A stretch of DNA of 64,000 bases from an uncultured Desulfosarcina sp. (lineage in GTDB: Bacteria; Desulfobacterota; Desulfobacteria; Desulfobacterales; Desulfosarcinaceae), in NCBI GenBank assembly GCA_963674945.2, contig CAXXWQ010000002.1, forward strand, positions 1 to 64,000. The letters are read 5' to 3'. Shown here one piece after another: positions 12,577-46,033 of this stretch. The notes under the pieces were generated by a model, which was not told the origin of the DNA, did no database searches, and saw only the letters and a list, made by a program, of their open reading frames with translations. Within the stretch, counting starts at the first letter, position 1. Each line of letters starts with the position of its first letter. The translations under genes and the position numbers were made by a program.

Positions 12577-12648
12577 ATGTCAGATCCACTGACCATATTG
12601 TTATTCGGAATCGGATTCGTTGCAATTGTCCGATTCAGCAAAAAGTGA
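12577..12648 (+). CDS. 23-aa micropeptide MSDPLTILLFGIGFVAIVRFSKK, PEP-CTERM sorting-signal-like
   Basis: RBS AAGGAG; DP + hydrophobic LLFGxG helix + basic tail; homologous to 15486-15560; below the ORF-track cut-off. Confidence 0.65.
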   Translation: MSDPLTILLFGIGFVAIVRFSKK

Positions 12649-12995
12649 TGGGAAACCAAATCGGAACAATGAGTATCTGCAAATATTTTCCATCCATCAA
12701 TGTTACGGGACCAATACCGCATTCAAGGACAACGATCTTTGCGCGCAGATTGCGTTAGCAATCATTCTCCATTGGGTAAACACACATCCCCAACCTCATC
12801 ATACTGAAATTCCATCTTTTTACGACGAAGGCCAGGACCGTTTCGCCCCGGCCTTTTTTCTTTCAGATGAATCTTCGTACGATATCACAGTAGCGGACAT
12901 CCAGGTATGTATTAAAGTAAGCGGTTTATTAACCCCATCTTCACAAAATTGTTCAGGCATGGCAATGTGTTTCCCCAAAGAAAGGAGAAGATATC

Positions 12996-13325
12996 ATGCC
13001 TGAAGACTATGATTCATTCGATTCCAAGCAAAGGCGAAAATTTTGGGAAAATCATATCGAGAAATGGAAGATCAGCAGCCTAAGCCAAAGGGCCTATTGT
13101 AAAAAAAACGATCTCATTCTCCATCGGTTTTACGATTGGAAACGGCGCATCATGCCCGTTGATAAAACCCGAGTTACTTTTTTGCCGGTTGCGCTCAACG
13201 GATCAGCGACGAGGAAACATCCATCCGTTCGTATTCATACCCCCAACGGATTTACCATCGAAGTCGATGATCAAAACGGATCGATAGAAATCAACAAGCT
13301 TGTTGCAATGGTGGCTACATTATGA
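12996..13325 (+). CDS. tnpA: IS66 accessory protein TnpA
   Basis: FWENHIEKWKISSLSQRAYC...FYDWKRR, FLPV. Confidence 0.9.
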   Translation: MPEDYDSFDSKQRRKFWENHIEKWKISSLSQRAYCKKNDLILHRFYDWKRRIMPVDKTRVTFLPVALNGSATRKHPSVRIHTPNGFTIEVDDQNGSIEINKLVAMVATL

Positions 13326-13669
13326 TGTTGCCCACCAATCCCAAAAGGGTCTTTCTGGCCGTGGGTAATACCGATATGCGCAAATCGATCAACGGGCTTT
13401 CGGTTTTGGTGGAACAGGCCATGGATTTGAATCCCTTCGAAGGGGACCTGTTCGTCTTCTGCAATCGGCGTCGGAACATGATAAAAATTTTATACTGGGA
13501 TAAAAATGGATTTGCTCTCTGGCTCAAACGGCTGGAGAAGCACCGTTTCCACTGGCCAACAACCACAAAAGAAGTCGTTTCCCTTAGTGCGAAAGAACTG
13601 GAATGGCTTCTCGCCGGACTGGATTATACGAATGCTCATGTGCGTTTAAACTACCGTTATGCAAGCTGA
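13322..13669 (+). CDS. tnpB: IS66 accessory protein TnpB
   Basis: TDMRKSINGL, LFVFCNRRR, KILYWDKNGF, KRLE; ATGA overlap with tnpA. Confidence 0.95.
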   Translation: MMLPTNPKRVFLAVGNTDMRKSINGLSVLVEQAMDLNPFEGDLFVFCNRRRNMIKILYWDKNGFALWLKRLEKHRFHWPTTTKEVVSLSAKELEWLLAGLDYTNAHVRLNYRYAS

Positions 13670-13732
13670 GAACATCCACCTGGAAGTAAAATAAGTGTGT
13701 ACAAATTCAATTGGTTATGCTATGTATCAGGC

Positions 13733-15292
13733 ATGCTTTCGGAATCGAACAACCTGCCCGATGACGCCCAATCGCTTAAGGAGATTATCTCTTCTCAGCA
13801 GCAGCAAATCGACCATCTGCAAGAAATGGTACGTCTGCTGAAGAACGAGCTGTTCGGTCGCAAAAGTGAAGTTTTGCCGGCCGTCAATCCCAACCAACTC
13901 CAGTTGTTCAAACCCGACGAAACCGCAGAGCCCGTCCTTGCCGATGACGACATCACCGTCCCGGAGCACACCCGCAAAAAGCGTGGCCGCAAACCGTTGC
14001 CTGAGGATCTGCCCCGCGTCGAGGTCCTGCACGATATCCCTGAGGCCGAGAAACGGTGTGCTTGCGGAGTTGAACTGAGCCGTATCGGCGAAGAGACCTG
14101 TGAGAAGCTCGATTATATCCCGGCAAAAATCCAGGTGATCCGTCACATCCGCCCCAAATACGCCTGCAAGGCCTGCGAAGGCGTCGAGGATGACGGCCCC
14201 ACCGTTAGGATCGCTCCGCCGCCAGAACAACTGATTCCCAAGAGCAACGCCACTGAGGGACTGCTGGCCCACATCGCTGTCTCAAAATTCGCCGATGCGC
14301 TTCCCCTGCATCGCCAACAAAAGATATTTGACCGTCTGGGCGTTGACATCTCACGGTCAACCATGGCCAATTGGATGATTCAGGCCGCCGGTTGCTGCCA
14401 GCCGATCGTCGAATTGATGCATCAGGAGATTCGAAGCGGTCCTGTGATCAATATCGATGAAAGTCCGTTTCAGGTGCTTCAGGAACCGGGCCGCAGCAAT
14501 ACAACAAAATCGTATATGTGGGTGTTTTGTGGCGGCCCGTTGGATGCCCCTGTGGTGCTTTACCAGTATCATCCCACCCGTAGTGGGAAGGTAGTGCAAG
14601 ATATGATAGAAGACTATTCGGGCTATGTTCAAAGCGACGGCTACAGCGGCTATGATCAGCTGTCCCAAAAGCAAGGGATCATCCATTTAGGTTGCCTGAC
14701 CCATGCCCGACGTAAATTTGTCGAGGTGAACAAAGGGCGCAAGGCGCGCGGCAAACAAAAAGCAGCCAAGGGGCTTGCCGACGAGGCGCTGGATTACATT
14801 GGCGCATTGTATGGCATAGAACGGTATGCGCGAGACAAGGATTTGTCGTATGAACAGATCCGTGACCTGCGACAGGAAAAGGCCAAGCCGATTCTGAAAC
14901 AATTTAAAACCTGGCTGGACACCTACCATTGGCAAGCTCCTCCGAAAAGCCTTCTCGGCAAAGCGATCCAATATTGCCTAAACCAATGGGACAAACTGGT
15001 TGTCTATATCAATGCCGGATTTCTGAAGCCCGACAACAATGTGGCTGAAAATGTCATCCGGCCATTCGTGTTGGGTCGCAAGAACTGGCTGTTTTCCGGC
15101 GCGCCCCGGGGTGCGGAAGCCAGCGCCACCTTCTTCGGTTTGATCGAAACGGCCAAAGCCAATGGGCTGGAACCCTATGCCTATCTTCGATACCTGTTCG
15201 CCAAACTTCCGCTGGCCAGGACGCGGGAGGACCATCTGGCGCTTTTGCCAAAAAATATCGACAAACAGACGCTGGCGATCCTTCGCTATTGA
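13733..15292 (+). CDS. tnpC: IS66 DDE transposase TnpC
   Basis: FGRKSE, RKPLPEDLPR, zinc finger, IDES, SDGYSGY, CLTHARRKF, DNNVAEN, GRKNWLF. Confidence 0.95.
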   Translation: MLSESNNLPDDAQSLKEIISSQQQQIDHLQEMVRLLKNELFGRKSEVLPAVNPNQLQLFKPDETAEPVLADDDITVPEHTRKKRGRKPLPEDLPRVEVLHDIPEAEKRCACGVELSRIGEETCEKLDYIPAKIQVIRHIRPKYACKACEGVEDDGPTVRIAPPPEQLIPKSNATEGLLAHIAVSKFADALPLHRQQKIFDRLGVDISRSTMANWMIQAAGCCQPIVELMHQEIRSGPVINIDESPFQVLQEPGRSNTTKSYMWVFCGGPLDAPVVLYQYHPTRSGKVVQDMIEDYSGYVQSDGYSGYDQLSQKQGIIHLGCLTHARRKFVEVNKGRKARGKQKAAKGLADEALDYIGALYGIERYARDKDLSYEQIRDLRQEKAKPILKQFKTWLDTYHWQAPPKSLLGKAIQYCLNQWDKLVVYINAGFLKPDNNVAENVIRPFVLGRKNWLFSGAPRGAEASATFFGLIETAKANGLEPYAYLRYLFAKLPLARTREDHLALLPKNIDKQTLAILRY

Positions 15293-15485
15293 TTCTTCTC
15301 TTACTTTCTACCGGCCGGTTCACAATCGTCTCCCATACACATTTTCATTGCCAAGCCTATGATGTCATAATATCTGGGCTATGTGAAGATGGGGTTTATT
15401 TGACCCTTACGTATTAAAAAATTAGATCTGTCATTTGAACCTGTCACTGATAGTTCAGTTGTTCTGTATTGAGCGCGTTATGGGA

Positions 15486-15560
15486 TTACTTTCTCTCGGA
15501 GATTGAGAAGAAACCAATGAAACCCATTCCCAATAGAAGCAACATCACAGGATCTATCAT
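15486..15560 (-). CDS. 24-aa micropeptide MIDPVMLLLLGMGFIGFFSISERK, PEP-CTERM sorting-signal-like
   Basis: RBS AAGGAG 6 nt upstream; sigma-54 motif about 60 nt upstream; homologous to 12577-12648. Confidence 0.68.
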   Translation of the reverse strand: MIDPVMLLLLGMGFIGFFSISERK

Positions 15561-15620: not shown

Positions 15621-15636
15621 AGCAACCAGTATGCCA
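15621..15636 (-). promoter_or_regulatory. Sigma-54 (-24/-12) promoter of the micropeptide gene
   Basis: TGGCATACTGGTTGCT on the minus strand: GG-N10-GC, close to TGGCACG-N4-TTGC. Confidence 0.7.
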
Positions 15637-15772
15637 GTGGCGTTTTTATTAATAATATCAATTTGTTTTATGTTGTATGGGGGGGGCTTTGGGCAATCGG
15701 ATTGCATCAAAACAGAGCAATCAATTGGATGTTTGTTCATATATTGCTGTTATTACATAAAAAATTAAGATT

Positions 15773-15815
15773 GCTGCAAAATGAGGCAGCCTCGCTTTCT
15801 GCATGATTTTACAGC
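15773..15815. promoter_or_regulatory. Paired putative upstream activator sites for an enhancer-binding protein
   Basis: GCTGCAAAATGAGGCAGC (15773-15790) and inverted copy GCTGTAAAATCATGCAGA (15798-15815), 14/18 identical, each quasi-palindromic, between two divergent sigma-54 motifs. Confidence 0.5.
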
Positions 15816-16006: not shown

Positions 16007-16022
16007 TGGCCTGCAATTTGCT
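16007..16022 (+). promoter_or_regulatory. Putative sigma-54 promoter of the caspase operon
   Basis: TGGCCTGCAATTTGCT: GG-N10-GC with TTGCT. Confidence 0.55.
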
Positions 16023-16278
16023 AATATACGGAGGCAGTCAATAAACAGAGAAAATCCGGTGCTTTCCATGGAAAATTGTCCGTTATTGACACTCTGGTAA
16101 GCCGTCATGTAATGTTACAGTATAATATGATGTTTTTCATATTTTAACGTTGCTTAATGATTTCATTCTGTTCGTGCTTCGCCAAGGCCAGTCTTTCGTA
16201 CGAAATGTCATGCGGCTTGTTGTTATCCCCCTATAATGGCGATCGGTACGAATGAAGTAACGTTGCGGGAGTAAAAAA

Positions 16279-18135
16279 ATGAACACTCGATACGACTTGG
16301 TTTTTTTGCCGGCAGTTTGCATCATTGCCGTATTTTTCTCATCCTCCGTATTTGCATCTACCATCTTGGTAAATTTTGAGAACTACACCCATATTTCAAA
16401 TTCCGAGGGCCAGGATGATCACGAGGGAGAAAACGGCAACCTGTCGAAAGCGTATGATCTGGCAGAGGAGCTTTTGTCGCAATATCTTTTTCAAAGTGGC
16501 CACAAGGTTATAACATCCAATGAAGTGGCACCATCCCAATGGCTTACGGAAAAAGAGATCCGGGAGGGTAGAAGCGGAAAACAGCTTCTTCTCAGAAAAA
16601 TGGCGGCGCTGAGCGATGCATCCGTATTTTTCAATGCGGTAATGCAAATGAATGAAACAAAGGAAGAATATCTCGGTGTTCAGATGAGTACGAATACACT
16701 CACCATCTCCTACAAGCTGGTGGAAACCGCAAGCGGTGACACCATTGCGATCGATTCCGGAAAATATGTCAGTGCCGCCAGAACTTCCGGCTATGCCCGC
16801 CACAGCGCAATAGAAAAAATGGCAAAAGATGTGGCCGCGCGAATATCGACGAAAGCATCCGAATCGGGAAACGGTAAAGCGGAGAAAGAATTGTCAAAAT
16901 ACAAACAACAGTGGTTGAAAGAAGGGGCTGCGACCAGTGCCGTCTTCCAGAAGGGACAAAAAACTTCAATCACAAAAGGGGCCTCAACCCCAAAAACCCC
17001 ATCCACCGCAATTGTATCAAAAGACGAGAAGCCACCTGAAATATTTCTCATTCAGCCGCCGGTTACACGCGGATTTGCAGTGGTTTCCAAGAAACCCAAG
17101 GCAACCATCAATGTGGCTGGAGTGGTTCGAGACGACAGTTCCATCCTTTACCTGCGCCTCAACGGAAGTAGAACAAACTTGGATTCCGATGGTTTCTTTT
17201 CCGAAAGTATCGCGATTGATGGCCAAACCGAAAAAATCGTGATAGAGGCCATGGACGAGCCGGGCAATAAAGTAACGAAAGAATTTCAATTGCTTGCTTC
17301 CAATGATGATGCACTGCGGGGAAAATCCGTTTCGGATATGTCCATCGCATCCGGTGCATTGAAACCGGCATTGTGGGGGTTGTCCATTGGCGTGTCCAAG
17401 TACCAAAGCACGATGACCGATCTCAAATATGCGGATATGGATGCCCGGTGTTTGTCGGAATTTTTTGAAACCAAGGCCAAACAGCTTTATTCGGAAGTTC
17501 ACTTCAAGACCCTGGTGAATGAGCAAGTCACCAGAGACAGCATCATCGATCATATTTCCGGCCACCTGGGTCAGGCCGCACCACAGGACGTCGTGTTCAT
17601 ATTCATGGCCGGCCATGGCATCAAACACGCTCAGACAGGTTCCTATTACTTCATGCCCCATGACGTCGACGCAAACAACCTGCTGTCAAGGGGCCTTAGA
17701 ATGTCCGACTTCGAAGAATCAATAAACATTCTGTCAGAAAATGTCGGTAAGTTGATCATCGCCATGGATACCTGCCATTCGGGAGCGTTGAATGTAAACG
17801 TGCGCACGGCATCCGGCGGTGAGAATTTAGCGGAAGTGCTCAAGGCGTCAACCGGTGTCTATATTCTCGCAGCCGCCAAAGGCGGAGAGGGCTCCATAGA
17901 GGATCTTCGTTTCAGAATCCGGGGCAGTGATTCCGGACATGGCGTATTTACCTATACCTTGATCGAAGGGATGATGGGGAAGGCGAATTTCGATGGGAAT
18001 GATTACATTTCCGTCAACGAACTCTTTCAATTTGTATCGAAACAGGTGCCGCGGCTGACAAAAGGTCGGCAGCATCCTTTTATTCGATCGGCAGGGACTG
18101 ATCTGCCATTGGTCATGCTGGGGCAAAATCCATGA
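16279..18135 (+). CDS. Exported caspase-family (peptidase C14) protein with N-terminal CsgG-like and Ig-like domains
   Basis: Signal peptide ending VFA; IGVSKY, LKYADMDA, catalytic FMAGHG and MDTCHSG, HGVFTYTL, GRQHP. Confidence 0.9.
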   Translation: MNTRYDLVFLPAVCIIAVFFSSSVFASTILVNFENYTHISNSEGQDDHEGENGNLSKAYDLAEELLSQYLFQSGHKVITSNEVAPSQWLTEKEIREGRSGKQLLLRKMAALSDASVFFNAVMQMNETKEEYLGVQMSTNTLTISYKLVETASGDTIAIDSGKYVSAARTSGYARHSAIEKMAKDVAARISTKASESGNGKAEKELSKYKQQWLKEGAATSAVFQKGQKTSITKGASTPKTPSTAIVSKDEKPPEIFLIQPPVTRGFAVVSKKPKATINVAGVVRDDSSILYLRLNGSRTNLDSDGFFSESIAIDGQTEKIVIEAMDEPGNKVTKEFQLLASNDDALRGKSVSDMSIASGALKPALWGLSIGVSKYQSTMTDLKYADMDARCLSEFFETKAKQLYSEVHFKTLVNEQVTRDSIIDHISGHLGQAAPQDVVFIFMAGHGIKHAQTGSYYFMPHDVDANNLLSRGLRMSDFEESINILSENVGKLIIAMDTCHSGALNVNVRTASGGENLAEVLKASTGVYILAAAKGGEGSIEDLRFRIRGSDSGHGVFTYTLIEGMMGKANFDGNDYISVNELFQFVSKQVPRLTKGRQHPFIRSAGTDLPLVMLGQNP

Positions 18136-18166
18136 GCTCAGTGCATCGAAGGAGCATCTCATTACC

Positions 18167-18790
18167 ATGATGGAGAACGTAACGGTGCGATTGGTTATCC
18201 TACTGCTACCGATTTTGATGATGTTGCAAAGCTTGCCCGGTTTTGCCTTCGAAGATCAAAGAACGCTGCTTGTCACCGGTGTTCAGAACGAAAGTGGGTC
18301 CAGGGAGTGGGATGAACAGCTCGTGGCCATGGGCGTCGCGAATCTGATTTCGGAGGAACTGTTCAAAACCGGCAGGTACGTACCCATGGAAACCAATCCG
18401 GAAGTGCTGCAATCCATCAATGAGATGATTGCCCTCAACCGTCAGCGCGCCGACGTCAGCCTGCATCCGGATCGATCCTTGCGGTTTCCCCAAATGGAAA
18501 CCGACGCAATGGCCTATGGTGTCATCAGGCGATATGAAAAAAGGCGGAAGCGGGCGATTGCAGGACTCTTTTCCTTTGCGAAGGTCACTGCGTACCTTGA
18601 AATCGAAATCATCATCGAAGAAAAAGACGGACCGTTTCGATCCGCCGTCGGCAAGGCGGAAGGCGAAACAGTTTCCAAAGGTCTATTGGTTCAAATCCGT
18701 GAAGAGGAGATACGATTTGACCAGACCAGTTTAGGGGCCGTTGCCAGCGATGCCGTCCGGCAGGCGGTCTCACAATTATTCCCAGAATAG
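18167..18790 (+). CDS. Exported CsgG/TolB-N-like fold protein
   Basis: Signal peptide; MGVANLISEELFKTGRY...TDAMAYGVI; similar to the adjacent CsgG-like protein. Confidence 0.65.
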   Translation: MMENVTVRLVILLLPILMMLQSLPGFAFEDQRTLLVTGVQNESGSREWDEQLVAMGVANLISEELFKTGRYVPMETNPEVLQSINEMIALNRQRADVSLHPDRSLRFPQMETDAMAYGVIRRYEKRRKRAIAGLFSFAKVTAYLEIEIIIEEKDGPFRSAVGKAEGETVSKGLLVQIREEEIRFDQTSLGAVASDAVRQAVSQLFPE

Positions 18791-18802
18791 AAGAGTCGTC
18801 GG

Positions 18803-19447
18803 ATGAAACAAGAACATTTTCCTTTATTGATACTGATTTCTGTCATATTCATGGTGGCCTGTGCTTCGACATCCGTCTCGCAGACACCAGCTGCATCGGA
18901 AGCCAAAACCCACCAAATCGATGATCTTCCAATGTATTCAGGGGAGAAAATCATCGTCGCCATATTGCCGTTGGGATTGTCTGAAAGAGCGGCCAAACGC
19001 TATCCGAAACTTCTGGAAAAATCGGTTGGTCTGGGTGTCCACAATTTGGTGATGGAAGCTCTTTTTGAAACCAACCGATTTCGGTACGTCGAGGAAAAAC
19101 CGGAAATTACCCAGGACATCCTTGATCGTCAGTGGTTGAGTGCGTCAGGCTATTTTTCCAATTCCCAAGCGGTTTCCTACGGAAAAATGCTAGGGGCCGA
19201 GAAGGTGATTTACGGCGAGATTTACGACTATGCAGAAGGAGGGGAACAGGTATTTGGACTCAAAGGTCACCAGGGATTCAATATAGCCGTAGGAGTACAG
19301 ATTGTCTGCACAAACGTGGAAACCGGTGAAAAAGAATCCATCGGGACATCCAGGGCCATCGCAACGACCTACGGTGAAGCCAGCCGTGTGGCCATCGACG
19401 GGGCGGTGTATGATCTGGTGAGTCGCCTGCAATTAAATAAAGAGTAG
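18803..19447 (+). CDS. CsgG/HfaB-family lipoprotein
   Basis: Lipobox MVAC; VAIL...ALFETNRFRYVE...GKMLGAEKVIYGEI...NVETGE. Confidence 0.82.
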   Translation: MKQEHFPLLILISVIFMVACASTSVSQTPAASEAKTHQIDDLPMYSGEKIIVAILPLGLSERAAKRYPKLLEKSVGLGVHNLVMEALFETNRFRYVEEKPEITQDILDRQWLSASGYFSNSQAVSYGKMLGAEKVIYGEIYDYAEGGEQVFGLKGHQGFNIAVGVQIVCTNVETGEKESIGTSRAIATTYGEASRVAIDGAVYDLVSRLQLNKE

Positions 19448-19473
19448 ACATACGAACAGGATGGAGGTGGGAG

Positions 19474-20691
19474 ATGACATACATTGGAAAACTGTTACAG
19501 GCGATGGCATTGATCGTCACCTTACTCTATCCATTTCACGCTTCCGCAGGCGACTTTTGGGATCAAATCGATTTTTCGGTCCAACAGACTTCGACACCCG
19601 GCGTCTTGGGTGTGGACAACCGCATCTATAATGCAAGATTTGTCGGGAAATGGAACGATTGGAACGGGGACCAATCGTTTGGTGCCGATGAGGTGTTGGC
19701 AGAATCGGTAAAATTATATGATCGAAATGGGCATCTGGTACTGGAATCACCGGATACCGTCAGAACCCGTGACGAACTGGAGGCCTGGGCCAGGGCCAAC
19801 GCGGATATTATCTGGTCCACGATTTTCGGTGGGAATCCCAGCTGTCCCATCGGTGGCTCCGATGATGTGGTGATGAACCAGGCCTCCATCAGCGAAGTGG
19901 TGTTTGAAAAGGTTGTGCCGCAGCGAAGGCAACTGGAAATAGACAAAGTCAACAATGAATTCAAGGCGGCACTGGAGTACCTTTCCGTTGACATCAATGG
20001 GGATGAAGGCAATTCTCTTTCCGCGTTATTGGGATATGCACATGAGTTTGGCAATGGATTGAATTTGGGTTTTCTTCTTCCCTACCGATACACGGACATG
20101 TCCGATGACATCAATACAGACGCTCACTATGCCGGCCTTTTTCTTTATGCCAAGAAGCCGGTCAAGACCTGGGAAGACCTGGACCTTACATGGACCGTTG
20201 GCGGGGACATTTTTGGATCGGCGTTTTACGCCCAATCCGATGCCATTTCAGATATGGGCACCCTGAAATACGGTGGCGGGCTGTTTACTTCCATGTGCAA
20301 ATATTGGTCGACCGTCGGCCTCAGTTTTGGCGTCGACTATAAAGTTTCCGATGCATCCGTATGGGAGCGTGTCATCGACGATGATGACGAGTTCGTTCAG
20401 GATGTCATCGACTGGGTGAATGACCTGGATCCCGTGGGTTCCCTTTCCTATGGATTCAATGTGGGTGTTCCCGTCTTTGGCGATGATGCGGCGGTGAATG
20501 TTGAGACCATACGAACCCATTTTTTCAGTGATGATATCGATGGGAGCCGCGACACCCAGACGGTAATCGGACTCACATTCTCCTATTTTCCGACGGATAC
20601 ATTCGAGATCACCATGGGCGGCAGGACTACCTTCGAACTCGATGATATCGAAATTTACGGAATCACCATTGGTTCTATCTACAGGTATTAA
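19474..20691 (+). CDS. Outer-membrane beta-barrel protein (autotransporter-barrel-like) with an N-terminal extension
   Basis: Signal peptide ending ASA; amphipathic strands in the C-terminal two-thirds; terminal aromatic ...GSIYRY. Confidence 0.7.
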   Translation: MTYIGKLLQAMALIVTLLYPFHASAGDFWDQIDFSVQQTSTPGVLGVDNRIYNARFVGKWNDWNGDQSFGADEVLAESVKLYDRNGHLVLESPDTVRTRDELEAWARANADIIWSTIFGGNPSCPIGGSDDVVMNQASISEVVFEKVVPQRRQLEIDKVNNEFKAALEYLSVDINGDEGNSLSALLGYAHEFGNGLNLGFLLPYRYTDMSDDINTDAHYAGLFLYAKKPVKTWEDLDLTWTVGGDIFGSAFYAQSDAISDMGTLKYGGGLFTSMCKYWSTVGLSFGVDYKVSDASVWERVIDDDDEFVQDVIDWVNDLDPVGSLSYGFNVGVPVFGDDAAVNVETIRTHFFSDDIDGSRDTQTVIGLTFSYFPTDTFEITMGGRTTFELDDIEIYGITIGSIYRY

Positions 20692-20772
20692 GCAGGTTTA
20701 ATTCTGGGACCTGAACGGGTGCCTTTTTAAAACCATGGGTATTCGGATGCAATAAACAGCAAAAGTCGTTTC

Positions 20773-22482
20773 ATGGCCGATATCTATAAAGAGACGTTGT
20801 GCTCCATTCTCGGCAGCCGGTATAAAATCGGCGGAAAATATGCCGAAGGGGGAATGGGGAAAATTTATCTGGGGATGCATCGTGCACTTGGAAAGCAAGT
20901 TGCCATCAAGGTCATTGACCAACGGTTTTGCAACGATAAAAAGATACGCAAACAGTTTTTCAAGGAGGCAAAGCTCGTCGCCAACCTTTCTCATAAGGGA
21001 ATCATCGATATTTACGATTTCGGTAGCCGGGAAGATTTTGATTTCATTATCATGCCATTTATTGACGGGGTTACCCTTTCGAAGAAATTGTCGAGAGAGG
21101 GACGGCTTTCAATGCACGAATCCCTGCGTATCACCCGAAGCGTAGCCGAGGCACTGGCCTTTGCACAGAAAAAAAAAGTGGTGCATCGGGACATAAAGCC
21201 CTCGAATATCCTGATCGACGAACAACAAGAGGTGATCCTCACCGATTTTGGTATCTGCAAAGATTTGACCGATCCCGAGCGCACGGCTTCCCGCATGATC
21301 ATGGGGTCGCCGAAATACATGAGTCCGGAGCAGGCCCTTGGCCAATCCGTTGACGGAAGAAGTGATTTGTATTCTCTGGGTCTCGTTTTTTATGAAATGG
21401 TAACGGGCAAATATCCGTTTCATGACAAACAGGCCGAGGATCTTTTGCATTCACAGGTTCACGGGCTGCCACCGGAGCCGGATCGACTCGTATCGGATAT
21501 TGAAAAACCGGTAAATGACGTTATCGTCAAGCTGATTCAGAAGTCCCCGGAAAGAAGATATCAATCCGCCGAAGAACTGATTGAAGACCTGAAACAATGC
21601 GCCTTTCTCGATCCCCGTGACAAATTGCATTCACCCATCCCCACAGCGTCGGACACGCTGATTCTCTCCAATGGGCCCACAGCCGTGAATGTGGACCCGG
21701 GCACTATGGGCGTTCCTTTACAGCAATCTTCCGATGGCCCAATGCCGGTCATCCATGCAGACGGTTCCAAACAGCCGGAAACCCATTTTCTTAGAAGATC
21801 ATTTCACTTTCGGTTCCTGGCATTGGCCGGGCTTTCTTTATTGCTTGGATCGGTCTTGCTCTACCACTTTGGATTCAAAGTACAAGATACGGCGTTGGTT
21901 TTCGAATCGACGACAAGTGAAAAAAATGTGGCAGCGGGAACTGCCGGCCAGGGAACGATTGGATCTGCGCAGTCGGATACGGTCGATGCAAATCAAAATT
22001 CCCCGCATGCACACATCCTTGCCCAACTGGTGGCATTGGGAAAGGACAAGGATACAACATTTGTGATGGCATGGTCGAATCAGTTACACTATCGGATCGG
22101 TGACGAAATATCCTATCATTTCATATCCGAAAAACCGTGCTATCTGATTATGCTGAACCAGACTTCCGCAGGCAACATCGTTCAGATTTTTCCCAATGGA
22201 AATGATCGAAACCAGTTCGTGGCGGCGAAACGAAAATACTCCATTCCCCGTGAGGAACTGGAAATCACCTTTACAGTAACGGGGCCGCCCGGACGCGATG
22301 AACTCATCGTTCTGGTCTCGGGCGAGCCCTTCGCCCTTTTCCCGGAAAATTACGAAGACGAGGTTTTTTACCAACTGGATGGGAAGAATGCCGATGCGTT
22401 TTCGAAACGGTTGGACCATCTGTTGACGTCAAGAACGGCTTCCATCGCACAAAAAAGAATCGGCTATACAATCGATAATTAA
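20773..22482 (+). CDS. Membrane Hanks-type Ser/Thr kinase with a C-terminal extracytoplasmic DUF4384-like domain
   Basis: EGGMGKIY, VAIK, HRDIKPSN, DFG, YMSPE, DLYSLG; TM LALAGLSLLLGSVLLYHF; YRIGDEI...CYLIML...IFPN...VTGPPGRD. Confidence 0.92.
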   Translation: MADIYKETLCSILGSRYKIGGKYAEGGMGKIYLGMHRALGKQVAIKVIDQRFCNDKKIRKQFFKEAKLVANLSHKGIIDIYDFGSREDFDFIIMPFIDGVTLSKKLSREGRLSMHESLRITRSVAEALAFAQKKKVVHRDIKPSNILIDEQQEVILTDFGICKDLTDPERTASRMIMGSPKYMSPEQALGQSVDGRSDLYSLGLVFYEMVTGKYPFHDKQAEDLLHSQVHGLPPEPDRLVSDIEKPVNDVIVKLIQKSPERRYQSAEELIEDLKQCAFLDPRDKLHSPIPTASDTLILSNGPTAVNVDPGTMGVPLQQSSDGPMPVIHADGSKQPETHFLRRSFHFRFLALAGLSLLLGSVLLYHFGFKVQDTALVFESTTSEKNVAAGTAGQGTIGSAQSDTVDANQNSPHAHILAQLVALGKDKDTTFVMAWSNQLHYRIGDEISYHFISEKPCYLIMLNQTSAGNIVQIFPNGNDRNQFVAAKRKYSIPREELEITFTVTGPPGRDELIVLVSGEPFALFPENYEDEVFYQLDGKNADAFSKRLDHLLTSRTASIAQKRIGYTIDN

Positions 22483-22522
22483 AATTCCATGTTTTGATGA
22501 ACTCATAGAAATTCGGGTTTCG

Positions 22523-22715
22523 GACGGCTTCGTAAAAAGTTCGAGATCAAGGATTGCTGGCCGCGACAGCGAGCGGATGCGAGCGAACAATAATCGATTT
22601 TCATCCTTTCGGCGAACATTTATGTTCCATCCCGAGGAATGAGGCGTATTTATGATACGTCGCAGTGACGAGGGATGAAGCGTAACGAAGATATCGGGCT
22701 TTTTACGAAGTCGTC
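22523..22715. repeat. MITE/REP-like element with terminal inverted repeats
   Basis: GACGGCTTCGTAAAAAG ... CTTTTTACGAAGTCGTC (16/17); right end overlaps the stop codon of the activator gene. Confidence 0.7.
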
Positions 22716-24576
22716 ATGTCTTGGGTTCTTCAATTTCCATCTTCTTCAGAAGCCTGCTGAGACGGTTGCGATCGACCTGAAGTAATTTTGCGGCCGCCGA
22801 TTTGTTCCAATTGGCTTGTTGCATCGCCATCTGGATATGGCCCCGTTCCACCTCAATCAATGGCTTGATGGAACCTGCGGGAACATCGGGCGACACTTCA
22901 AAGACATTCAGTAAATCTTTGAGGTGGTGTCGATCGATGGTGCCGCCGTCGCATCGATAGGCGGCCTGAAACAACGTGTTCCGCAATTCACGGATATTGC
23001 CCGGCCAATCATAGGCTTGCAGCAATCGCAGCGCTTTGATGGAAATGGCAAAGTCTCTTTTTCCATTCATATGCTGCTCACTGAGATCCTTCAGGATCTG
23101 TCGGGACAGGGGGCCGATATCTTCCGTTCGATCTCTCAGCGGTGGGGCGGTGATTTCCACATTGGCCAGTCGGAAGTACAGATCATCCCTGAATTGTAAC
23201 GCCTCGCGGTCATTTTTGATGTCCTTGTGGGTGGCGGAGATCACCCGCAGATCGATTTTGACGGGACGACGCCCCCCCACACGCCACACTTCCTGTTCCT
23301 GCAGTGCACGCAGGAGCTTGGCCTGTTGTTCGAATGGCATGTCGCCGATCTCATCGAGAAAGATTGTCCCGCCATCGGCCAGTTCGAGAAGCCCCGGTTT
23401 TTGTTGTGTGGCGCCGGTGAATGCGCCTTTCTCATGGCCAAAGAGTTCACTTTCGAACATAGCGGCGGCAATGGCGCTACAATTACAAGCAATGAACGCG
23501 CCGGTTCGTTTGGAGCGGTCATGGATATATCGGGCAATCACCTCCTTGCCAGTGCCCGTTTCGCCATAAATCAATACCGCTACATTGAAGGATGCGATTT
23601 TTTTGGTGTCCTGGAAAACCTTTATGGTTTTGGGACTGCGGGCGATGATTCCCTCGGTCTCAAGTTCCCGCGCATATCGCTGTTCATCCCGGTCGAGGCG
23701 GTTCTCTTTTTTCTCTTCCATGAGAAACGCCTGTGCCACATATCCGGCGACCGCGAACACCAGATCACGATCGGTTTTTAAAAAGCCGTTGTTTCGTTCC
23801 GGGTGATCCAGATAGAGGCATCCGACTGTTCGATCTTTCTCCAACAACGGCATGCACAACACCGAATGGACATCCAGTTCCAATATCCTCTTGTCTGCCT
23901 GTTCCTCGGCGTCACGGTGATAAAAGATCCAGGCGCCTTCTTCCATAACACTTTTCAAAAAATCACAAATGACTTCGGGCAATGTGCCATGGGGGCCAAA
24001 TCCACGAATGTGGGTAATGGACATTTCTCCGGTGCTATCTCGCCGGGATAGAATTGCGCGTTGGCCCCCGGTAATGTCGAGGAGGGTGACGAGCACCAGC
24101 GTACCGAAATCGACATCCCCGGTGGATGCGTATAAATCGGTCACCATTTTCAGCAATTGGGATAGCTTGTGGGCCAGCCCATCTTTCTCCTCCATGAACA
24201 GAGCCGGTCGGTTTGCTGTCGCCTGGCGCCATGAGGTGGCATCTTCCTGCGAGACGATTGTCATTCCGGCAGGAGGCGCATCCTGGGAACGAATATCGTC
24301 TACGAATGTGAAGAGATAATCGTGAATGCGAAAAGACTTTCCATGGGACAGGGGACATCGATCCATTCGCTGATCGTCGACAAAGGTTCCGTTTGTACTT
24401 CCTTCGTCGATCAGATCGAATCCTTCGGTTGTCTGTTCGATGCGGGCATGTCTTCTGGAAACGCCAACATCGTTCAATGGAATATCGTTTCCGCTTCCGC
24501 GCCCGATGCGTGTCTGTCCTTCAAGGGAATAGACATTATACAAGTGGGAATCTTTCGAAATGATTATGCTGGGCAT
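22714..24576 (-). CDS. FHA-GAF-sigma54 AAA+-Fis HTH transcriptional activator
   Basis: FHA IGRG...VSRRHA...STNGTFV; GAF SVLCMPL...GCLYLD; GETGTGKE, ESELFGHEKGAFTGA, FLDEIGD, WPGNIRELRN; HTH NKSAAAKLL. Confidence 0.95.
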   Translation of the reverse strand: MPSIIISKDSHLYNVYSLEGQTRIGRGSGNDIPLNDVGVSRRHARIEQTTEGFDLIDEGSTNGTFVDDQRMDRCPLSHGKSFRIHDYLFTFVDDIRSQDAPPAGMTIVSQEDATSWRQATANRPALFMEEKDGLAHKLSQLLKMVTDLYASTGDVDFGTLVLVTLLDITGGQRAILSRRDSTGEMSITHIRGFGPHGTLPEVICDFLKSVMEEGAWIFYHRDAEEQADKRILELDVHSVLCMPLLEKDRTVGCLYLDHPERNNGFLKTDRDLVFAVAGYVAQAFLMEEKKENRLDRDEQRYARELETEGIIARSPKTIKVFQDTKKIASFNVAVLIYGETGTGKEVIARYIHDRSKRTGAFIACNCSAIAAAMFESELFGHEKGAFTGATQQKPGLLELADGGTIFLDEIGDMPFEQQAKLLRALQEQEVWRVGGRRPVKIDLRVISATHKDIKNDREALQFRDDLYFRLANVEITAPPLRDRTEDIGPLSRQILKDLSEQHMNGKRDFAISIKALRLLQAYDWPGNIRELRNTLFQAAYRCDGGTIDRHHLKDLLNVFEVSPDVPAGSIKPLIEVERGHIQMAMQQANWNKSAAAKLLQVDRNRLSRLLKKMEIEEPKT

Positions 24577-25487: not shown

Positions 25488-26945
25488 TTACCCGCCGGAT
25501 CGTTCGACAAAGGTGTGCAGGGGCTCGGGTTTGAAAGCGTAGCTGCTAAGGGGCTGCCACTGGCAGAGTGCGGAGATCTCTATCCCATCTTGAATGACGG
25601 CAACGGGTCGATCGGCTGAAACGACCACGACGATGATGTCATTGTGCTCTGCCGAAAAGCGCAGTGCGGAGTTGTAACGTGCCCCACGGGAAAGGTCTTC
25701 GCCGGGGATGGTGCGTCCGTCGAGCAGACAACCGAAGCCCTGCAACTGAATCAGGCGGGTTATATGCAGGGCGCCGTCCACCTTCGTGAGGGATTTGGCA
25801 AGGTCCAAAAGGTGCAGTTCTCTAAGGTCGAGGGGGGTGTCGAGGGTCTGACCGGAGATCTTCACCGCTTTCTCATTCAGGTCGATCACCAGCGTACAAC
25901 CGTGCTTCTGGGCCTGGGCGTGGTGGACAAGGTTGGTAACGGTACGAAAAAGGACCCCACCCGTTTCGGCGTCCAGGTCGCTTTCGAGAATAAGCTCCTC
26001 TAATTGCACCATCTTGGCCTGACGGGTCGTGGATTGAAAACTTCCGTCGCAGAAGCTGCAGACAGTATCCTCGTTAATTTTGAGAAAGCCATGCTGGCCA
26101 AGAAAGTCGGCTAGCAGACAGAAGCTCGGCAGTTCACCATTGCTGATCCCCAGGATGGTTTGGCCGTCGGATACGAGTTTGCGGGGTGAGCCAGTGACGG
26201 CCTGGAGCATCTTGCAGACGTGTTTGTGGTTGTCCAGCATCGGTTGTTCGCTGGGCCGGAACCGGGCTACGAAATTGATGGTTTGCTGAAACCGCGGCTC
26301 GCTGAAGAGCAGTTCACCCCTGGGCCAGGCACCTTCTTCCCGGGACTTGGAGATTCCCAAGACGGCATCGAGAATGGGATAAACCCGCATCTGGGAGTCC
26401 CAGCCGAGTTTCAGATTGATCTCATCGACCACATGATCGCGCACTGCGTGGGTGGCGTACTCTCGCAGAAAGTAGCCGGAGATGCCGGTGTAAAGCTCAC
26501 TGCCATTGGCGATATCATGGGAGAAACGCCAACAGGCATGTTCCAGCCAGCGTTCGGTGGGTCCCACACTGCACAGGTCGGGATGGTGCTCGGTGAACCA
26601 CATCTGGTAGAATACCGAATTGGAGCGTCCTCCATAGGAGATCAATCCTGCCAGGCCGAGATCAGGCTCGGGGAGGATGCGGTAGAACATCAAGCGGTCC
26701 CGCCCGGGGGGGGCTTTGGTACGCCAGGTCTCATCTTCCAAAAAGAGTTGGCGAAACTTCGGTTCGTGGCCCTGAAGAAGGTGCTGCGGGTCACAGACGA
26801 GAAGGGGCTCGTCGGCCGTAAGGGTAAAGATCACTGCCGTCCGGCTGGCACCGGAATAATGGGAGATGCCGTCGCGCAACCCTTCCAGGGTGTCGCTGAC
26901 CACATGATTTACAAAGGCCTTTCGATACTTTTCCGACATGTACAA
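25488..26945 (-). CDS. Diadenylate cyclase (DisA_N/DAC) domain protein with long N-terminal sensor-like region
   Basis: HGCTLVID, KVDGAL, RGARYNSALRF, VVVSAD in the C-terminal domain. Confidence 0.82.
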   Translation of the reverse strand: MYMSEKYRKAFVNHVVSDTLEGLRDGISHYSGASRTAVIFTLTADEPLLVCDPQHLLQGHEPKFRQLFLEDETWRTKAPPGRDRLMFYRILPEPDLGLAGLISYGGRSNSVFYQMWFTEHHPDLCSVGPTERWLEHACWRFSHDIANGSELYTGISGYFLREYATHAVRDHVVDEINLKLGWDSQMRVYPILDAVLGISKSREEGAWPRGELLFSEPRFQQTINFVARFRPSEQPMLDNHKHVCKMLQAVTGSPRKLVSDGQTILGISNGELPSFCLLADFLGQHGFLKINEDTVCSFCDGSFQSTTRQAKMVQLEELILESDLDAETGGVLFRTVTNLVHHAQAQKHGCTLVIDLNEKAVKISGQTLDTPLDLRELHLLDLAKSLTKVDGALHITRLIQLQGFGCLLDGRTIPGEDLSRGARYNSALRFSAEHNDIIVVVVSADRPVAVIQDGIEISALCQWQPLSSYAFKPEPLHTFVERSGG

Positions 26946-39369: not shown

Positions 39370-42300
39370 TCGATATCTCTTCCTCACTTAATTCATCATT
39401 TATCTGGTCTTTCAACTGTGAAATTACATACGGATTCAACCCCATTAATGCTAAACTTCCATTTTCCATTCAAGCATAAGCAGAGCAATAAGGGAGAGAA
39501 TGATGAGGCGAATTTCTGCTTTTTTGAACAATGTTTTTCACTTTAAGGCGAAATTGATGTCGGTTAAATCAATTGCCATAACCATATCCGTTATCCTATT
39601 TGGATTTCACTTCACTTTGTTTTTCAGCCAAGATGTCTTTGGGTCTGCTCTAAGCCCTAATTGTGGTTCTTTTCACGATGCTCAATGGACTGCCGGAAGT
39701 ATAAATTATATTGGTCATGTAATGGGAGTTTACGATACCTACGATGAAGCTGAAGCTGCAATTCTGTCAAACCATCTGACAGACCCTATTAGCTATGTTC
39801 TCGACTCTACTTACCTACCTTATATGTACTCGGGACCTGTCGAGCCACCTGATATCTCCGCTATCTGCCACGTGGATAGTACATTTAATTCAGAAACACA
39901 AATGTTTGACGACGTCCTGTACGCTTATTTTATACTGTCAGCCTTTGATTGCTGCGATGGAAACGATTTCGACGGAGATGGCGTAGGCGACTGTACAGAC
40001 AATTGTATAGAGGCGTCAAACCCAGACCAACTGGATCACGATGGTGACGGTGTGGGCGATGCCTGCGACTGGGAGACCGAACTTTACTTGGGATATGAAA
40101 TCTATCCCCCCCATACGATCTGCCCGATCAATGAAAAAAAAGGTGACCCGATAAACATTTTAAGCGGCAACTTGGTGGAAAGAGAGAGGGATATCTCACT
40201 CCCATCACCCTTTCATAATGGTTTGGTTTTCAAACGATTCTATAACAGCCAGTCCACTTCGAGCGGAGCCCTCGGATACGGATGGTCTCATAGTTTCAGT
40301 GCCGTACTGACCACTAACTACTCCGATTCCAGTATGATTAAAATCAAAGATGAATCCGGACGAGGCTTGTTTTTTTCAACAACAGACAATATCAACTTCA
40401 TTGGTCTTTACAATGAAAAGAGTTCAGTCGTGTTGGAAAATAACGAATATGTGTGGAAGCGTAACGACAGCCTGCTTTATTTCTTTGATGAGTACGGCGT
40501 TTTGATAAGAATTGAGGATCGAAATGGCAACCAGCTATCACTCTCATATAATAGCTACAACCGCTTGGAAACGATTCTTGATCAATCCAGCAACCGTAGC
40601 CTGACATTTTATTATAATGCGAATAACAATCTTGACCATATTGTCGGGCCAGTCACCCAAAGCATTCCCAATGGCATCTGGGTTTCTTTTGGATACGACA
40701 CCAATAACAATTTGGATTCAGTCACTTATGCTGATGGGTCTGGATTTGATTATAAGTATGAGGATCCAAACGATGATCACAATCTGACCCAAAAAAGTGA
40801 TAAGCAGTCAAACACTTTAGCAACATGGTTCTATGGATACAATGACAAAGCTTATAAGAACATAAACAGAGAAGGAACAGGAGTCACCATCCTTTTCGTG
40901 AGTGAAACTCAGGTAGATGTAACGGACGCTTACGATTTTACCCGCTCGTACACGATTGATTCGTCAATTGATGCCCGCAAACGTATTATCCAGGCTCAGG
41001 GAACGGTTGGATGTTCAACCTGCAATGAAGATGTAGTTCGGATTGACTATGATACCAGCGGCAGAATTATGGAAAAAGAGTACGCCAATGGAAGAATTGA
41101 TAGTTTTGAAGACTATGACAGCCAGGATAATGCAACGACCGTGAGGCTTGCTTCTGGGGCTGTTGATGAACGTGTTATCCATTTCACCTACGATGAAACA
41201 AGCTTTCCATACTTGAGACTGCTGCTTAGCCGTACTGAAATCAGCACGTTGGATACGGGTGACGGATCTCGCCTGAAAGAAACCATCTGGGATTATGACG
41301 ATGACGGCAATACAATTCCAAATGAAAATCCCACGCCACGATTGAGCCGGTTAATCGAAAAGGGGTTTACCTATGATGAAAATGGGGAAGTCATTGCCTA
41401 TGAATATGTAACAGCATATTATTACAATCCAGAAGGGCAAATTGAAAGTGTCGATGGACCGCTTTCTGGTGCGGATGACACAACAGCGTTTACATATTAT
41501 CCACTGACAGGCGACCTGGAAACCATTACCCGACCGATAGTAGGAACAACAACATTTGGAGGCTACGATGCCGCCGGCAATCCCGGTAACGTTGTCGACC
41601 GGAACAATGTGCTAACGACCTTTGATCAATATGACGGTCGCAACCGATTGCTGGGTTGGACCACCAATGGTATCCCTCAATCCAGAAGCTACGACATTTC
41701 GGGAAATATCGTCACCGAAACCGACGGTGCGCAAAGATCGATTGGATTTGGCTATTATGACTCTACACATGGCGTCCTTAAAAATGGTTTGCTCAAAACC
41801 ATCACAGACGGTCGTAGCAATTACCAGCAATACAACTACGATGACCAGGGAAATATAAACGATGTATCTTTTCATAGGTCCACAGGTGAACGGAAGTTTT
41901 GGCAACGCTTTGATTACCAGTCACCGGACAGTCCGGGAAAACTTTGGAAAATCATCCGGAGAAACTATGAGGATACCTCGGATTTGGAGACTATTTACGG
42001 TTATGATGCCGCAGGCAACACAGACAGTATAACCGATGCTCTGCTCAATGAGAGCACCATCCTTTATGATGCCTTTAACAGGCCGTTTACGATAAATCAG
42101 CCGGAAAACCAAGTTATTATTTATGGTTACGACAGGCATGGCAACCTTTATTCGGTGAAAGATGCGAAAGAACTGGAAACAATATTCGTTTTTGATGATA
42201 TGAGCCGCATGGTTAAGCGGAATTCCCCTGATACCGGGACAACCCGATATGCCTACAATGAGGTTGGCGCCATTGAAACCATGGTAAAAAATAGCGGTAT

Positions 42301-43424
42301 AACCGTTGCTTACAGTTATGATGCCCTTAACCGACTGAGAGTCGAGGATTATGCCTATGACAACCTTGATGTCATCTATACCTATGATGCCTACGAAAGC
42401 GGGGTAAATTACGGTATCGGCAGGTTGACCGGAATGAGTGACGGTTTCAGCAGTTATAGTTATGGATACGATGCGCATGGGAATATAAACAAAGTCACCA
42501 AGATAGTAGACGGCATTTCTTACGTAACCGAATACGCCTATGATTCAGGCAGCTTGCTCGACAAGATGATTATGCCTGGGGGACAAATCGTATCCTATAA
42601 TCGAGATAGTGCCGGTCAAGTTTCGGGGGTGGATTACAAACAAAGCGATGCCTCACCATTACAAATTCTTGCTTACGGCATTTACTACGAGCCCTTCGGA
42701 CCGATGAAAACCCTCTCTGCATGGTCCAACAACAGCGACTCGGTGAGAACTTACGATTTAAGCTATGGGATCGATACAATCTATGATAGTACGATCAATG
42801 GCGGCGTTACGATCCAGGAGCTTGAATTCATACATGATGATGTCGGCAACATCACCGATATTTTGAATACAGCAGACAGCACCCGTGACCAACATTTCAA
42901 CAATGATGATTTATATCGCATCGATTCTTTTATGGGAATTTATGGATCGGTTGATTTCACCGACGACTATAATTTCACCAGCTACGATCCAAATGGCAAC
43001 CGAGAGTGGTATAGAAGATATGACTTTTGGTGGAATGGGTTCAATTATGAGATGGAGAAGATCAATTACAGCTATGATTCCGACAGCAATAAACTGGTTG
43101 ATAAACAGGTTCTGTCTGGAGTATTACAACCACGACCACTACCGTACACAGTAATCTACAGCCACGACGATGATGGAAACTTGGTTTCATCGGCGGCAGA
43201 GACGGCGGTTTCTGTGACGGCCACGCCCACGGAATATGTTTACAACCCACTGGGACAAAGAATAAAGAAAATCCACGGGGGTTTGACGACCAATTATCAT
43301 TATGACAAGGACGGCCGATTGATCGGAGAAAGTGACGTCCTGGGCAATTTGACGCAGTTATACATCTATCTCAATGGAGTTCCCTTTGCCAACGTTAAGA
43401 TCAATGGTACAAATGAAGATATTT

Positions 43425-45175: not shown

Positions 45176-45829
45176 TATTTACATTTACCACACTGACCAT
45201 CTGGGAACCCCGCAAAAGATGACCGATAGCAGCGGGACGGTGGTTTGGGCTGCGGATTACAAACCGTTTGGTCAGGTGGATTGGACGATTGTTTGGCCGC
45301 CTGATTATGGTGGTATTACGGTCAATACTATTGAGAATAACTTGCGGTTGGCGGGCCAATATTACGATGCCGAGACCGGTCTGCACTACAACTACCACCG
45401 ATATTATCATCCGGCTACTGGGAGGTACCTGACGCCTGATCCGATTGGGTTGTTGGGTGGCATCAACTTGTATTCGTACGTCCAAAATAATCCGATTAAT
45501 TTTATTGATCCGTTGGGGTTATTTTCTTGGGGCTTTGGTGGAACAATAGGTCCAGTAACAATTAGCTGGGATTCTTCAAAGCCCACGAAAACGAATACTT
45601 CCTTTGTGAGTGACCTTGAGATAGGCGGAGGCTTTTCTTTCACATTTGACCACCCATTTCCTGATTCCAATCCACCAACTACCCCCTTTGACGTAAATGT
45701 TGGGCCAAGCAGATGGATAGGCTTTTCAACAGATGGGGATAAATTCAGTATAAAAATAGGATTAGGGGTTGGGTTAACGCCGATTGATATCTCATCAAAA
45801 GGGGAAGATTCTCAGAATGGTGGCTGCGA

Positions 45830-46033
45830 ATGAAACAATATTTACCAATAATATTTGCTATAATTTCTGGCTGCTGTCTGTTGATTATTGCAATTAGAAA
45901 TAAGATTCCGTTTTTTGGGGGCCTATTATCTCCTAAGATTAAAATTCAATTAAGCAGAACAGATAAGTATCTTTCTCTGTTCGCACTTTTGTTTTTTTTA
46001 TTTTCTCTTTTATTGGTTTGTTTAAATTACTAG
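45830..46033 (+). CDS. Putative two-TM immunity protein
   Basis: ATGA overlap with the Rhs stop; very AT-rich; two hydrophobic helices. Confidence 0.7.
   Translation: MKQYLPIIFAIISGCCLLIIAIRNKIPFFGGLLSPKIKIQLSRTDKYLSLFALLFFLFSLLLVCLNY

Follow-up and report, generated by a model that had tools for sequence, protein, structure and literature searches.

An outer-membrane barrel operon under a predicted kinase-FHA-sigma-54 regulator in an uncultured Desulfosarcina sp.

We analyzed a stretch of 64,000 nucleotides (nt) at the start of contig CAXXWQ010000002.1 from an uncultured Desulfosarcina sp. (GenBank assembly GCA_963674945.2), a member of the sulfate-reducing Desulfobacterota; the stretch is referred to here as the window. 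It carries five same-strand genes for predicted envelope proteins, designated A to E, and a sixth, F, which converges on them and encodes a predicted sigma-54 activator. An earlier note on this DNA, made from its letters alone, had read the six genes as a closed loop across the envelope, in which an outer-membrane complex or periplasmic protease would signal to the kinase E, and E would engage F to induce the operon.

Six predicted proteins at one locus

The six open reading frames (ORFs) are as follows.

16279-18135 (+): A, 618 residues, predicted exported caspase-family protease with an N-domain of the FlgT/PelC/CsgG fold, an immunoglobulin (Ig)-like domain and a C14 domain (His446/Cys499)
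18167-18790 (+): B, 207 residues, predicted periplasmic protein of the CsgG/LpoB fold, paralog of C
18803-19447 (+): C, 214 residues, lipoprotein of the CsgG/LpoB fold
19474-20691 (+): D, 405 residues, acidic outer-membrane barrel of 12 strands from a family without a name; helices precede strand 1, and the N-domain resembles SdrD-B repeats
20773-22482 (+): E, 569 residues, Hanks-type Ser/Thr kinase with one transmembrane helix and an external DUF4384 domain
22714-24576 (-): F, 620 residues, FHA-GAF-AAA+-helix-turn-helix (HTH) sigma-54 activator

The inventory given in the earlier note stands: five co-directional genes with gaps of only 31, 12, 26, and 81 nt; an exported caspase with an intact dyad and its own CsgG-like domain; two further CsgG-fold proteins, one of them a lipoprotein; an outer-membrane barrel; a single-pass Hanks kinase with DUF4384; a convergent FHA-GAF-GAFTGA activator; and a GG-N10-GC motif upstream of the operon. 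It had missed the Ig-like domain in A as well as two features upstream of the operon that are described below, the activator boxes and another sigma-54 site, on the minus strand. Contigs from one public run span the locus with no differences. In the 7.08-Mb genome, the only close paralog of A, B, C, or D is one other caspase domain.

A has a hydrophobic N-terminus, an Ig-like domain (Pfam) and a Peptidase_C14 match at residues 368-604 (Pfam, E 3e-15), and its dyad, His446 and Cys499, is invariant in seven of seven aligned sequences. These are the fold and the His-Cys dyad of C14 caspase-like proteases, the model of the C14 domain itself being of low confidence. The model of A is poor overall (predicted local distance difference test [pLDDT] 49.5), with the N-domain scoring about 70-85. 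That part matches FlgT (Z 12.3, root-mean-square deviation [rmsd] 2.9, 156 residues aligned), PelC (Z 11.7, rmsd 2.5, 119 aligned) and CsgG (Z 10.3, rmsd 4.0, 146 aligned), as well as LptE-like chains and TolB, all at Z 10-12. The CsgG-like fold is seen in the model only: Pfam recognizes nothing in the N-domain, profile comparison relates it significantly to neither B nor C, and sequence searches of solved structures with A, B, or C returned nothing useful. Exported or FGE-fused caspases are known from excerpts of one report, where they go unexplained (PMC3501461), and our literature search on bacterial metacaspases with signal peptides or FGE-sulfatase domains found none linked to CsgG.

B and C are paralogs (98.5% probability in profile comparison). 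Both match CsgG weakly in Pfam (E 0.014 for B and 1.5e-4 for C), and the match covers just the first half of the model, positions 9-114 of 210. The closest atlas clusters of B are CsgG/LpoB, and three loci have B fused to an extra CsgG-fold domain; C bears a lipobox with an invariant Cys. The Pfam matches, the atlas clusters and the model of the A N-domain all point to a CsgG-type alpha/beta core, and the locus carries three copies (B, C, and the A N-domain) of a fold often found under outer-membrane barrels or rings. The matches cover the periplasmic half of the CsgG model and leave out the rest, so the suggestion of CsgG pores is weak; the three look like a periplasmic collar instead. The reported lack of curli genes was borne out: no curlin subunit or CsgE/F family occurs among the six proteins, and the operon has no room for more genes.

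The model of D (pLDDT 83.7, predicted template-modeling score 0.78) has 12 strands at 161-404, with helices and a small beta domain before them. D has no Pfam match, and its top fold matches are tied, all near 10% identity: the autotransporter barrels NalP (Z 22.6, rmsd 3.4, 257 aligned), Hbp (21.6) and AIDA-I (21.5), the small channels KdgM (21.4), NanC (21.1) and COG4313 (21.1), and FapF (Z 20.7, rmsd 3.1, 239 aligned). The alignment with NalP starts at residue 48 and includes the pre-barrel region, and plugged channels tie with it. Like type Va autotransporters, D has a C-terminal 12-stranded barrel, a preceding helix and an aromatic final residue; the mature barrel is acidic (63 D/E versus 25 K/R). 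A profile search among 1.84 billion proteins gave 118 clusters at E <=0.001. Of the 39 that were scanned, the close ones lack a Pfam family, and four weak matches, to the N-domain, are SdrD-B repeat proteins. A language-model atlas search with D found only unnamed or generic barrel clusters. D belongs to an outer-membrane barrel family that is so far unnamed and has fixed partners. A second barrel paralog, at L023:13824-15281, carries a long stretch rich in Gly and Ser, inserted after the helices and ahead of strand 1; similar inserts are present in other members of the D family.

E comprises a kinase domain (22-269), one transmembrane helix from 348 and DUF4384 at 439-519 (Pfam, E 7e-20). The kinase-DUF4384 fusion is among the architectures listed for the Proteo1 family in excerpts of a preprint (bioRxiv 2025.01.12.632604). 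By Pfam and motif reading, F consists of FHA, GAF, a sigma-54 AAA+ domain with Walker A/B and GAFTGA motifs, and a C-terminal HTH, as expected of a sigma-54 activator. The phosphothreonine motifs of its FHA domain and the kinase motifs of E are intact. F is one of about 48 sigma-54 activators in this genome and is distinct from PrsR (TIGR02915), whose assignment calls for a receiver domain and a score above a cut-off of 502.6 bits, against 297 for F; PrsR itself is a separate gene at C2:155610. The gap between E and F (window 22520-22716) holds a short element with inverted repeats, to which public contigs give very high depth and which is probably a miniature transposon. A separate family of FHA-AAA activators lacking GAF occurs in five genomes (L059-L063), in two cases beside exopolysaccharide- or PEP-CTERM-like genes.

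Sigma-54 sites, predicted boxes and the reach of F

The region upstream of A contains the following features.

16007-16022 (+): predicted sigma-54 (-24/-12) promoter site of the operon, TGGC-N7-TTGCT, with GG at 16008-16009 and GC at 16020-16021
15800-15815 (+): predicted F box, 207 nt upstream of the -24 element of the operon
15773-15788 (-): predicted F box, 219 nt from the plus-strand promoter and 152 nt from the minus-strand promoter
15704-15719 (-): third box, 83 nt upstream of the minus-strand promoter and weak, with a score of 10.0 against 24.8 and 21.4
15621-15636 (-): second, divergent sigma-54 site, with box spacing (about -82 and -152) as in relatives
15486-15560 (-): ORF of 24 codons with a ribosome site, PEP-CTERM-tail-like by eye, downstream of the minus-strand promoter

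The genome has 197 strict sigma-54 sites, and the one at 16007-16022 ranks in the top 1% of 697 upstream regions; a sigma-70 scan near the operon start gave nothing above shuffles. Sigma-54 sites are not conserved before relatives of B, C, and D (the triad), with one triad upstream region in the top 5% of background. In another genome, G445, the neighborhood of a 53%-identical F includes a sigma-54 site preceded by two copies of the box motif seen in the window. A pattern built from these four sites, two in the window and two in G445, has exactly two matches in the Desulfosarcina genome, both upstream of the operon promoter. Five genomes with F relatives gave 12 matches, versus none for the reversed control. 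Ten of the sites, in four other F genomes, were not used in building the pattern: all lie in AT-rich DNA (31-42% GC), four have a sigma-54 site 80-91 nt off, in two others a variant site can be made out by eye, and one is upstream of the F gene itself. In five barrel-only genomes there were four matches, three of them within ORFs and none near a sigma-54 site. Box and sigma-54 site occur together in 3 of the 4 other family genomes with F and in 0 of 60 without it, and in a single one of 400 genomes of the order, that of the closest F relative.

The predicted recognition helix points the same way. Box-bearing F relatives share the helix DRNRL with F; in this genome, where 26 helices could be parsed from 48 activator-like ORFs, none of the others has it. 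G115 and G313 have another helix and carry a variant box in two or three copies. By comparative genomics only, F has the predicted upstream box near a -24/-12 site expected of a sigma-54 activator. Since the predicted box tracks F across genomes, we consider control of the operon by this activator, as first proposed, quite probable, and it is the strongest step of the relay proposed below.

Three points weigh against this assignment. The range of 80-91 nt was fixed after the positives had been seen, and this genome does not fit it. The pattern derives in part from the window's own sites, leaving the negatives and the first 10 predicted sites as the only non-circular results. Finally, the usual spacing in relatives fits the minus-strand promoter, not that of the operon. 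The true target of F could then be the divergent promoter, its gene lost or cut near the insertion element IS66, with the operon site incidental or served by another activator, and F and the operon neighbors by co-transfer. The boxes at -83 and -152 agree with this, the genome has many other activators, PrsR included, and the sequence TTTACA, with which the PrsR motif ends on its 3' side in excerpts of its description (PMC1569441), occurs within one box. TTTACA is, however, missing from most other box copies, and a strong box at -207 has the orientation of the operon. Enhancers more than 300 nt from their promoters appear in the available part of a Desulfovibrio study (PMC4641369). A close relative of F, in G048, shares a divergent layout (+80 and -235), with its box between hcp and a tssJ-tssK-tssM cluster. 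Moreover, two loci that combine caspase and triad (G075 and G045) have no F match and neither a box nor a strong sigma-54 site. On balance, a target on the minus strand alone is improbable.

The divergent promoter faces the 24-codon ORF and then IS66 (window 12917-15410), which has at least 10 near-identical copies in the genome. Two ORFs of 23-24 codons with ribosome sites, both PEP-CTERM-tail-like, face each other across it at window 12577-12648 (+) and 15486-15560 (-).

In relatives, the genes after the box encode a PEP-CTERM protein in G415, a subtilase along with other exported proteins in G436, and repeat proteins with a lipoprotein in G445. The F regulon here has apparently shrunk to the present locus. 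The earlier remark that type VI secretion genes are absent holds for this genome: Hcp (PF05638), the one type VI core gene searched for, has no match in this genome (G000, 98.7% complete), but in G048 the box of a close F relative sits at the hcp and tss genes.

At three loci (L057:5503-7850, L058:5350-7900, and L079:7786-10470), a sigma-54 site beside an F relative leads into genes for small secreted proteins with about three 36-residue Gly/Ala/Asn/Val repeats, present as tandem gene copies in G115. These proteins resemble subunits of functional amyloids or beta-solenoid fibers; the longer members were scanned and gave no Pfam match. The same loci hold a 110-residue secreted protein, FHA proteins and a lipoprotein of 470-490 residues. 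The lipoprotein was considered as a relative of C and rejected, there being no match to C, and it has no solved relative.

Company kept by the barrel and by the activator

After removal of three duplicates, 27 barrel loci were examined, among which L027 and L028 are near-identical. Four are distant relatives (about 24% or less) without B or C. Both B and C are present in 18 of the 23 close loci, in varying order and orientation; of the other five, four stop at a contig edge, and L037 has D alone. The barrel occurs in 12 of 401 genomes of the order and 3 of 65 of the family, and the FHA-GAF region of F in 12 and 5, respectively. The Desulfosarcina genome is the only one in these samples with both.

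The full set may not be unique. Homologs of A, D, and F (63, 69, and 65%) are all assigned to a contig of 26,617 nt, and L022 shows the same D as on that contig, between C and a kinase 77% identical to the first 123 residues of E. From the shared contig and L022 together, one further organism probably has all six genes. Co-occurrence of the genes across genomes is partial: the parts recur in several combinations, but the full set was seen directly in no other locus. A fixed system of six genes, as the earlier note implied, is rejected, with D and F sharing no other genome in either sample and with caspase and kinase as rare additions to the triad. The locus is better described as two modules, a conserved barrel triad (B, C, D) under a mobile kinase-FHA regulator.

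Much of this distribution speaks against a loop that takes in the triad. Among the 23 close barrel loci, a caspase is present in two (G075 and G045), a kinase in one (L022), DUF4384 in one and F in none. Most triads lack all four nearby, which implies that the triad works without the loop. Furthermore, the DUF4384 protein retained next to the barrel in G075 is membrane-anchored and has no kinase, which suggests a structural role. The link between kinase and F meets objections of its own. Six of eight other F-type loci have no adjacent kinase (four of the six stop at a contig edge); among the six are the two closest whole-genome F relatives (62% and 59%), both of which encode other kinases elsewhere. 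The kinase of G048 is not an E ortholog, with 35% identity over 170 residues and PEGA instead of DUF4384. This genome also has other kinases, and a second, exported DUF4384 gene converges on an FHA-FHA gene on another contig (L043:8554-10250, C4). A kinase does adjoin F in two of the eight loci (G048 and G313), and in G048 a kinase, F, two caspases, an FGE-sulfatase domain and a DUF4384 protein stand together without the triad. A kinase-F link that recurs but is loose seems plausible.

These data leave room for a simpler arrangement, in which F controls the operon as plain output: A to D would build a surface or export structure, F would take its signal from other kinases or from a GAF ligand, and E would act elsewhere. 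A barrel with a collar and a processing protease is loosely like the Fap or Pel machines, and the fold of D ties with that of FapF. The predicted targets of F relatives are all envelope or secretion genes, the triad mostly stands alone, and the adjacent kinase is mostly missing. E, however, lies inside the F-boxed operon and adjoins F both here and probably in the second organism. The operon also lacks a fiber-subunit or cargo gene, and nothing in this genome matches the repeat protein found beside other F relatives. We give plain output a fair probability, somewhat below that of the relay proposed below.

A further reading is a module for antagonism or defense. The caspase might be sent to the surface through D and the collar, there to cut proteins of attackers or neighbors, upon induction through E and F. 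In line with this are the box before hcp and tss genes in a close F relative and, in G436, clusters of kinase, CsgG-fold and protease genes that flank a type VI cluster. DUF4384 also occurs in Csx30, the substrate of a CRISPR caspase-like protease, according to the accessible part of a preprint (bioRxiv 2022.08.17.504292). On the other side, this genome has no Hcp, most triads come without a caspase, and nothing resembling an immunity gene was noticed. Nor is a folded protein of 600 residues likely to fit through a barrel of 12 strands that has helices in or at its lumen. We judge this role quite unlikely.

Several neighboring arrangements were recorded. L025:5681-11796 is a triad locus with a 456-residue lipoprotein family and an LPP20-like protein, and the shared lipoprotein family ties the triad to the repeat-protein operons of F relatives. 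L157:5079-12662 (G045) combines a caspase-DUF4384 gene, a caspase-PEGA-FGE gene and several DUF4384 genes, some apparently fragmented. Kinase-PEGA, a trypsin-like protease and several CsgG-fold proteins recur at L151:4236-13913 (G436) and L152:1-7379 (G445); the G436 cluster also has an ABC exporter and adjoins the type VI cluster. Within the window, a protein with DACND, DACNH and diadenylate-cyclase domains is encoded upstream of F (25488-26945, minus strand). At 39500-45833 an Rhs/YD-repeat gene is apparently split by a transposase, with core and tip resuming at 45162 (by translation reading).

A proposed relay and its closest known relatives

Our verdict on the class of system is predicted trans-envelope kinase-FHA signaling with a transcriptional output. 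Tentatively, and as a proposal that may well be correct, we suggest that a collar and protease on D report an envelope event to E, that E activates F and that F induces the operon. B, C, and the A N-domain would sit on D as a periplasmic collar held by a lipid anchor, comparable to PelC on PelB or LptE on LptD; from the place of the A N-domain in this collar it would follow that the protease is parked at the outer membrane. Contact or damage sensed at D may alter the protease or the collar and, in turn, cluster or free the DUF4384 domain that E exposes to the periplasm. This relay from the outer membrane to E is the weakest step. E would then autophosphorylate and recruit or phosphorylate F, supplying the phosphothreonine read by its FHA domain. 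Activated F is predicted, with good support from comparative genomics, to drive transcription from 16007-16022 and from the divergent site. F would thereby switch on the operon encoding E, in a positive feedback loop that reports on the outer envelope.

The counterparts of F in relatives likely govern a program for contact and surface functions, comprising type VI secretion, anchored surface proteins and fiber-like repeats. A general contact-and-surface pathway of sulfate reducers, from a barrel with a three-part lipoprotein collar and a caspase through a DUF4384 kinase and a phosphothreonine-reading sigma-54 activator to type VI secretion, anchored surface proteins or amyloid-like fibers, is a further extension that we consider doubtful. 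If such a pathway exists, it would be the first signaling role for DUF4384 and for exported bacterial caspases. Control of sigma-54 transcription by Ser/Thr kinases through FHA activators has been proposed for years, and a kinase, activator, box and promoter within 9 kb make the idea testable. The locus also defines a barrel family that has no name yet and keeps constant partners, and it places exported caspases and DUF4384 in a definite setting; the predicted regulon ties surface building to type VI secretion in sediment sulfate reducers. Our literature search, with most subscription papers outside its scope, found no paper on this locus, box or barrel family and none pairing DUF4384 with CsgG.

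Among systems that set a barrel or ring on a lipoprotein of the same alpha/beta fold, PelB-PelC, LptD-LptE and the FlgT ring come closest, and the A N-domain matches PelC, FlgT and LptE-like chains. D differs in being an unnamed 12-stranded barrel; the fold is present here in three distinct versions, of which one is joined to a protease, and no polysaccharide, lipopolysaccharide or flagellar genes recur beside D. Curli and Fap have in common with the locus CsgG-fold proteins, a 12-stranded barrel (FapF, tied with D) and an exported cysteine protease. Unlike in curli, the CsgG match of B and C stops after the first half of the model, and the operon has no subunit gene. FapD is the peptidase of the Fap system, and the protease here is C14 rather than C39. 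Autotransporters (NalP, Hbp, AIDA-I, EstA) give the best fold matches to D, that with NalP including the pre-barrel region, and the KdgM, NanC and COG4313 channels lie within 2 Z of them. In contrast to autotransporters, D has about 10% identity to them, no Pfam autotransporter match, a very small N-domain and conserved lipoprotein partners.

For the regulatory half, PrsK-PrsR likewise sets a sigma-54 activator and a box over scattered surface-protein (PEP-CTERM) genes in sediment bacteria, as excerpts of its description have it (PMC1569441); here FHA is predicted to take in Ser/Thr phosphorylation, in place of input from a histidine kinase, and the box is different. In the type VI threonine pathway (TagQ-TagR-TagST-PpkA-Fha1 or RtkS-PpkA-Fha), a lipoprotein and periplasmic partners act on a single-pass kinase that is read by FHA, according to the available part of PMC10482370. 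E and F have this in common with it: E is a single-pass Ser/Thr kinase with a periplasmic domain, and F, as the FHA partner, has its motifs intact. The locus is not a member of that pathway, since no Hcp was found in the genome. The predicted output is sigma-54 transcription instead of machine assembly, and the operon has a barrel and a caspase and no phosphatase, ABC transporter or TagR-like gene. TagR carries an FGE-sulfatase domain, and the FGE-sulfatase domains in related loci may be likened to it. The same fusion of FHA to a sigma-54 activator is found, in a different lineage, in the FHA enhancer-binding proteins of Myxococcus xanthus, for which Jelsbak in 2005 reportedly proposed a link to neighboring kinases. 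What the Desulfosarcina locus adds to these is a specific predicted box, a predicted regulon and an envelope operon as the likely target.

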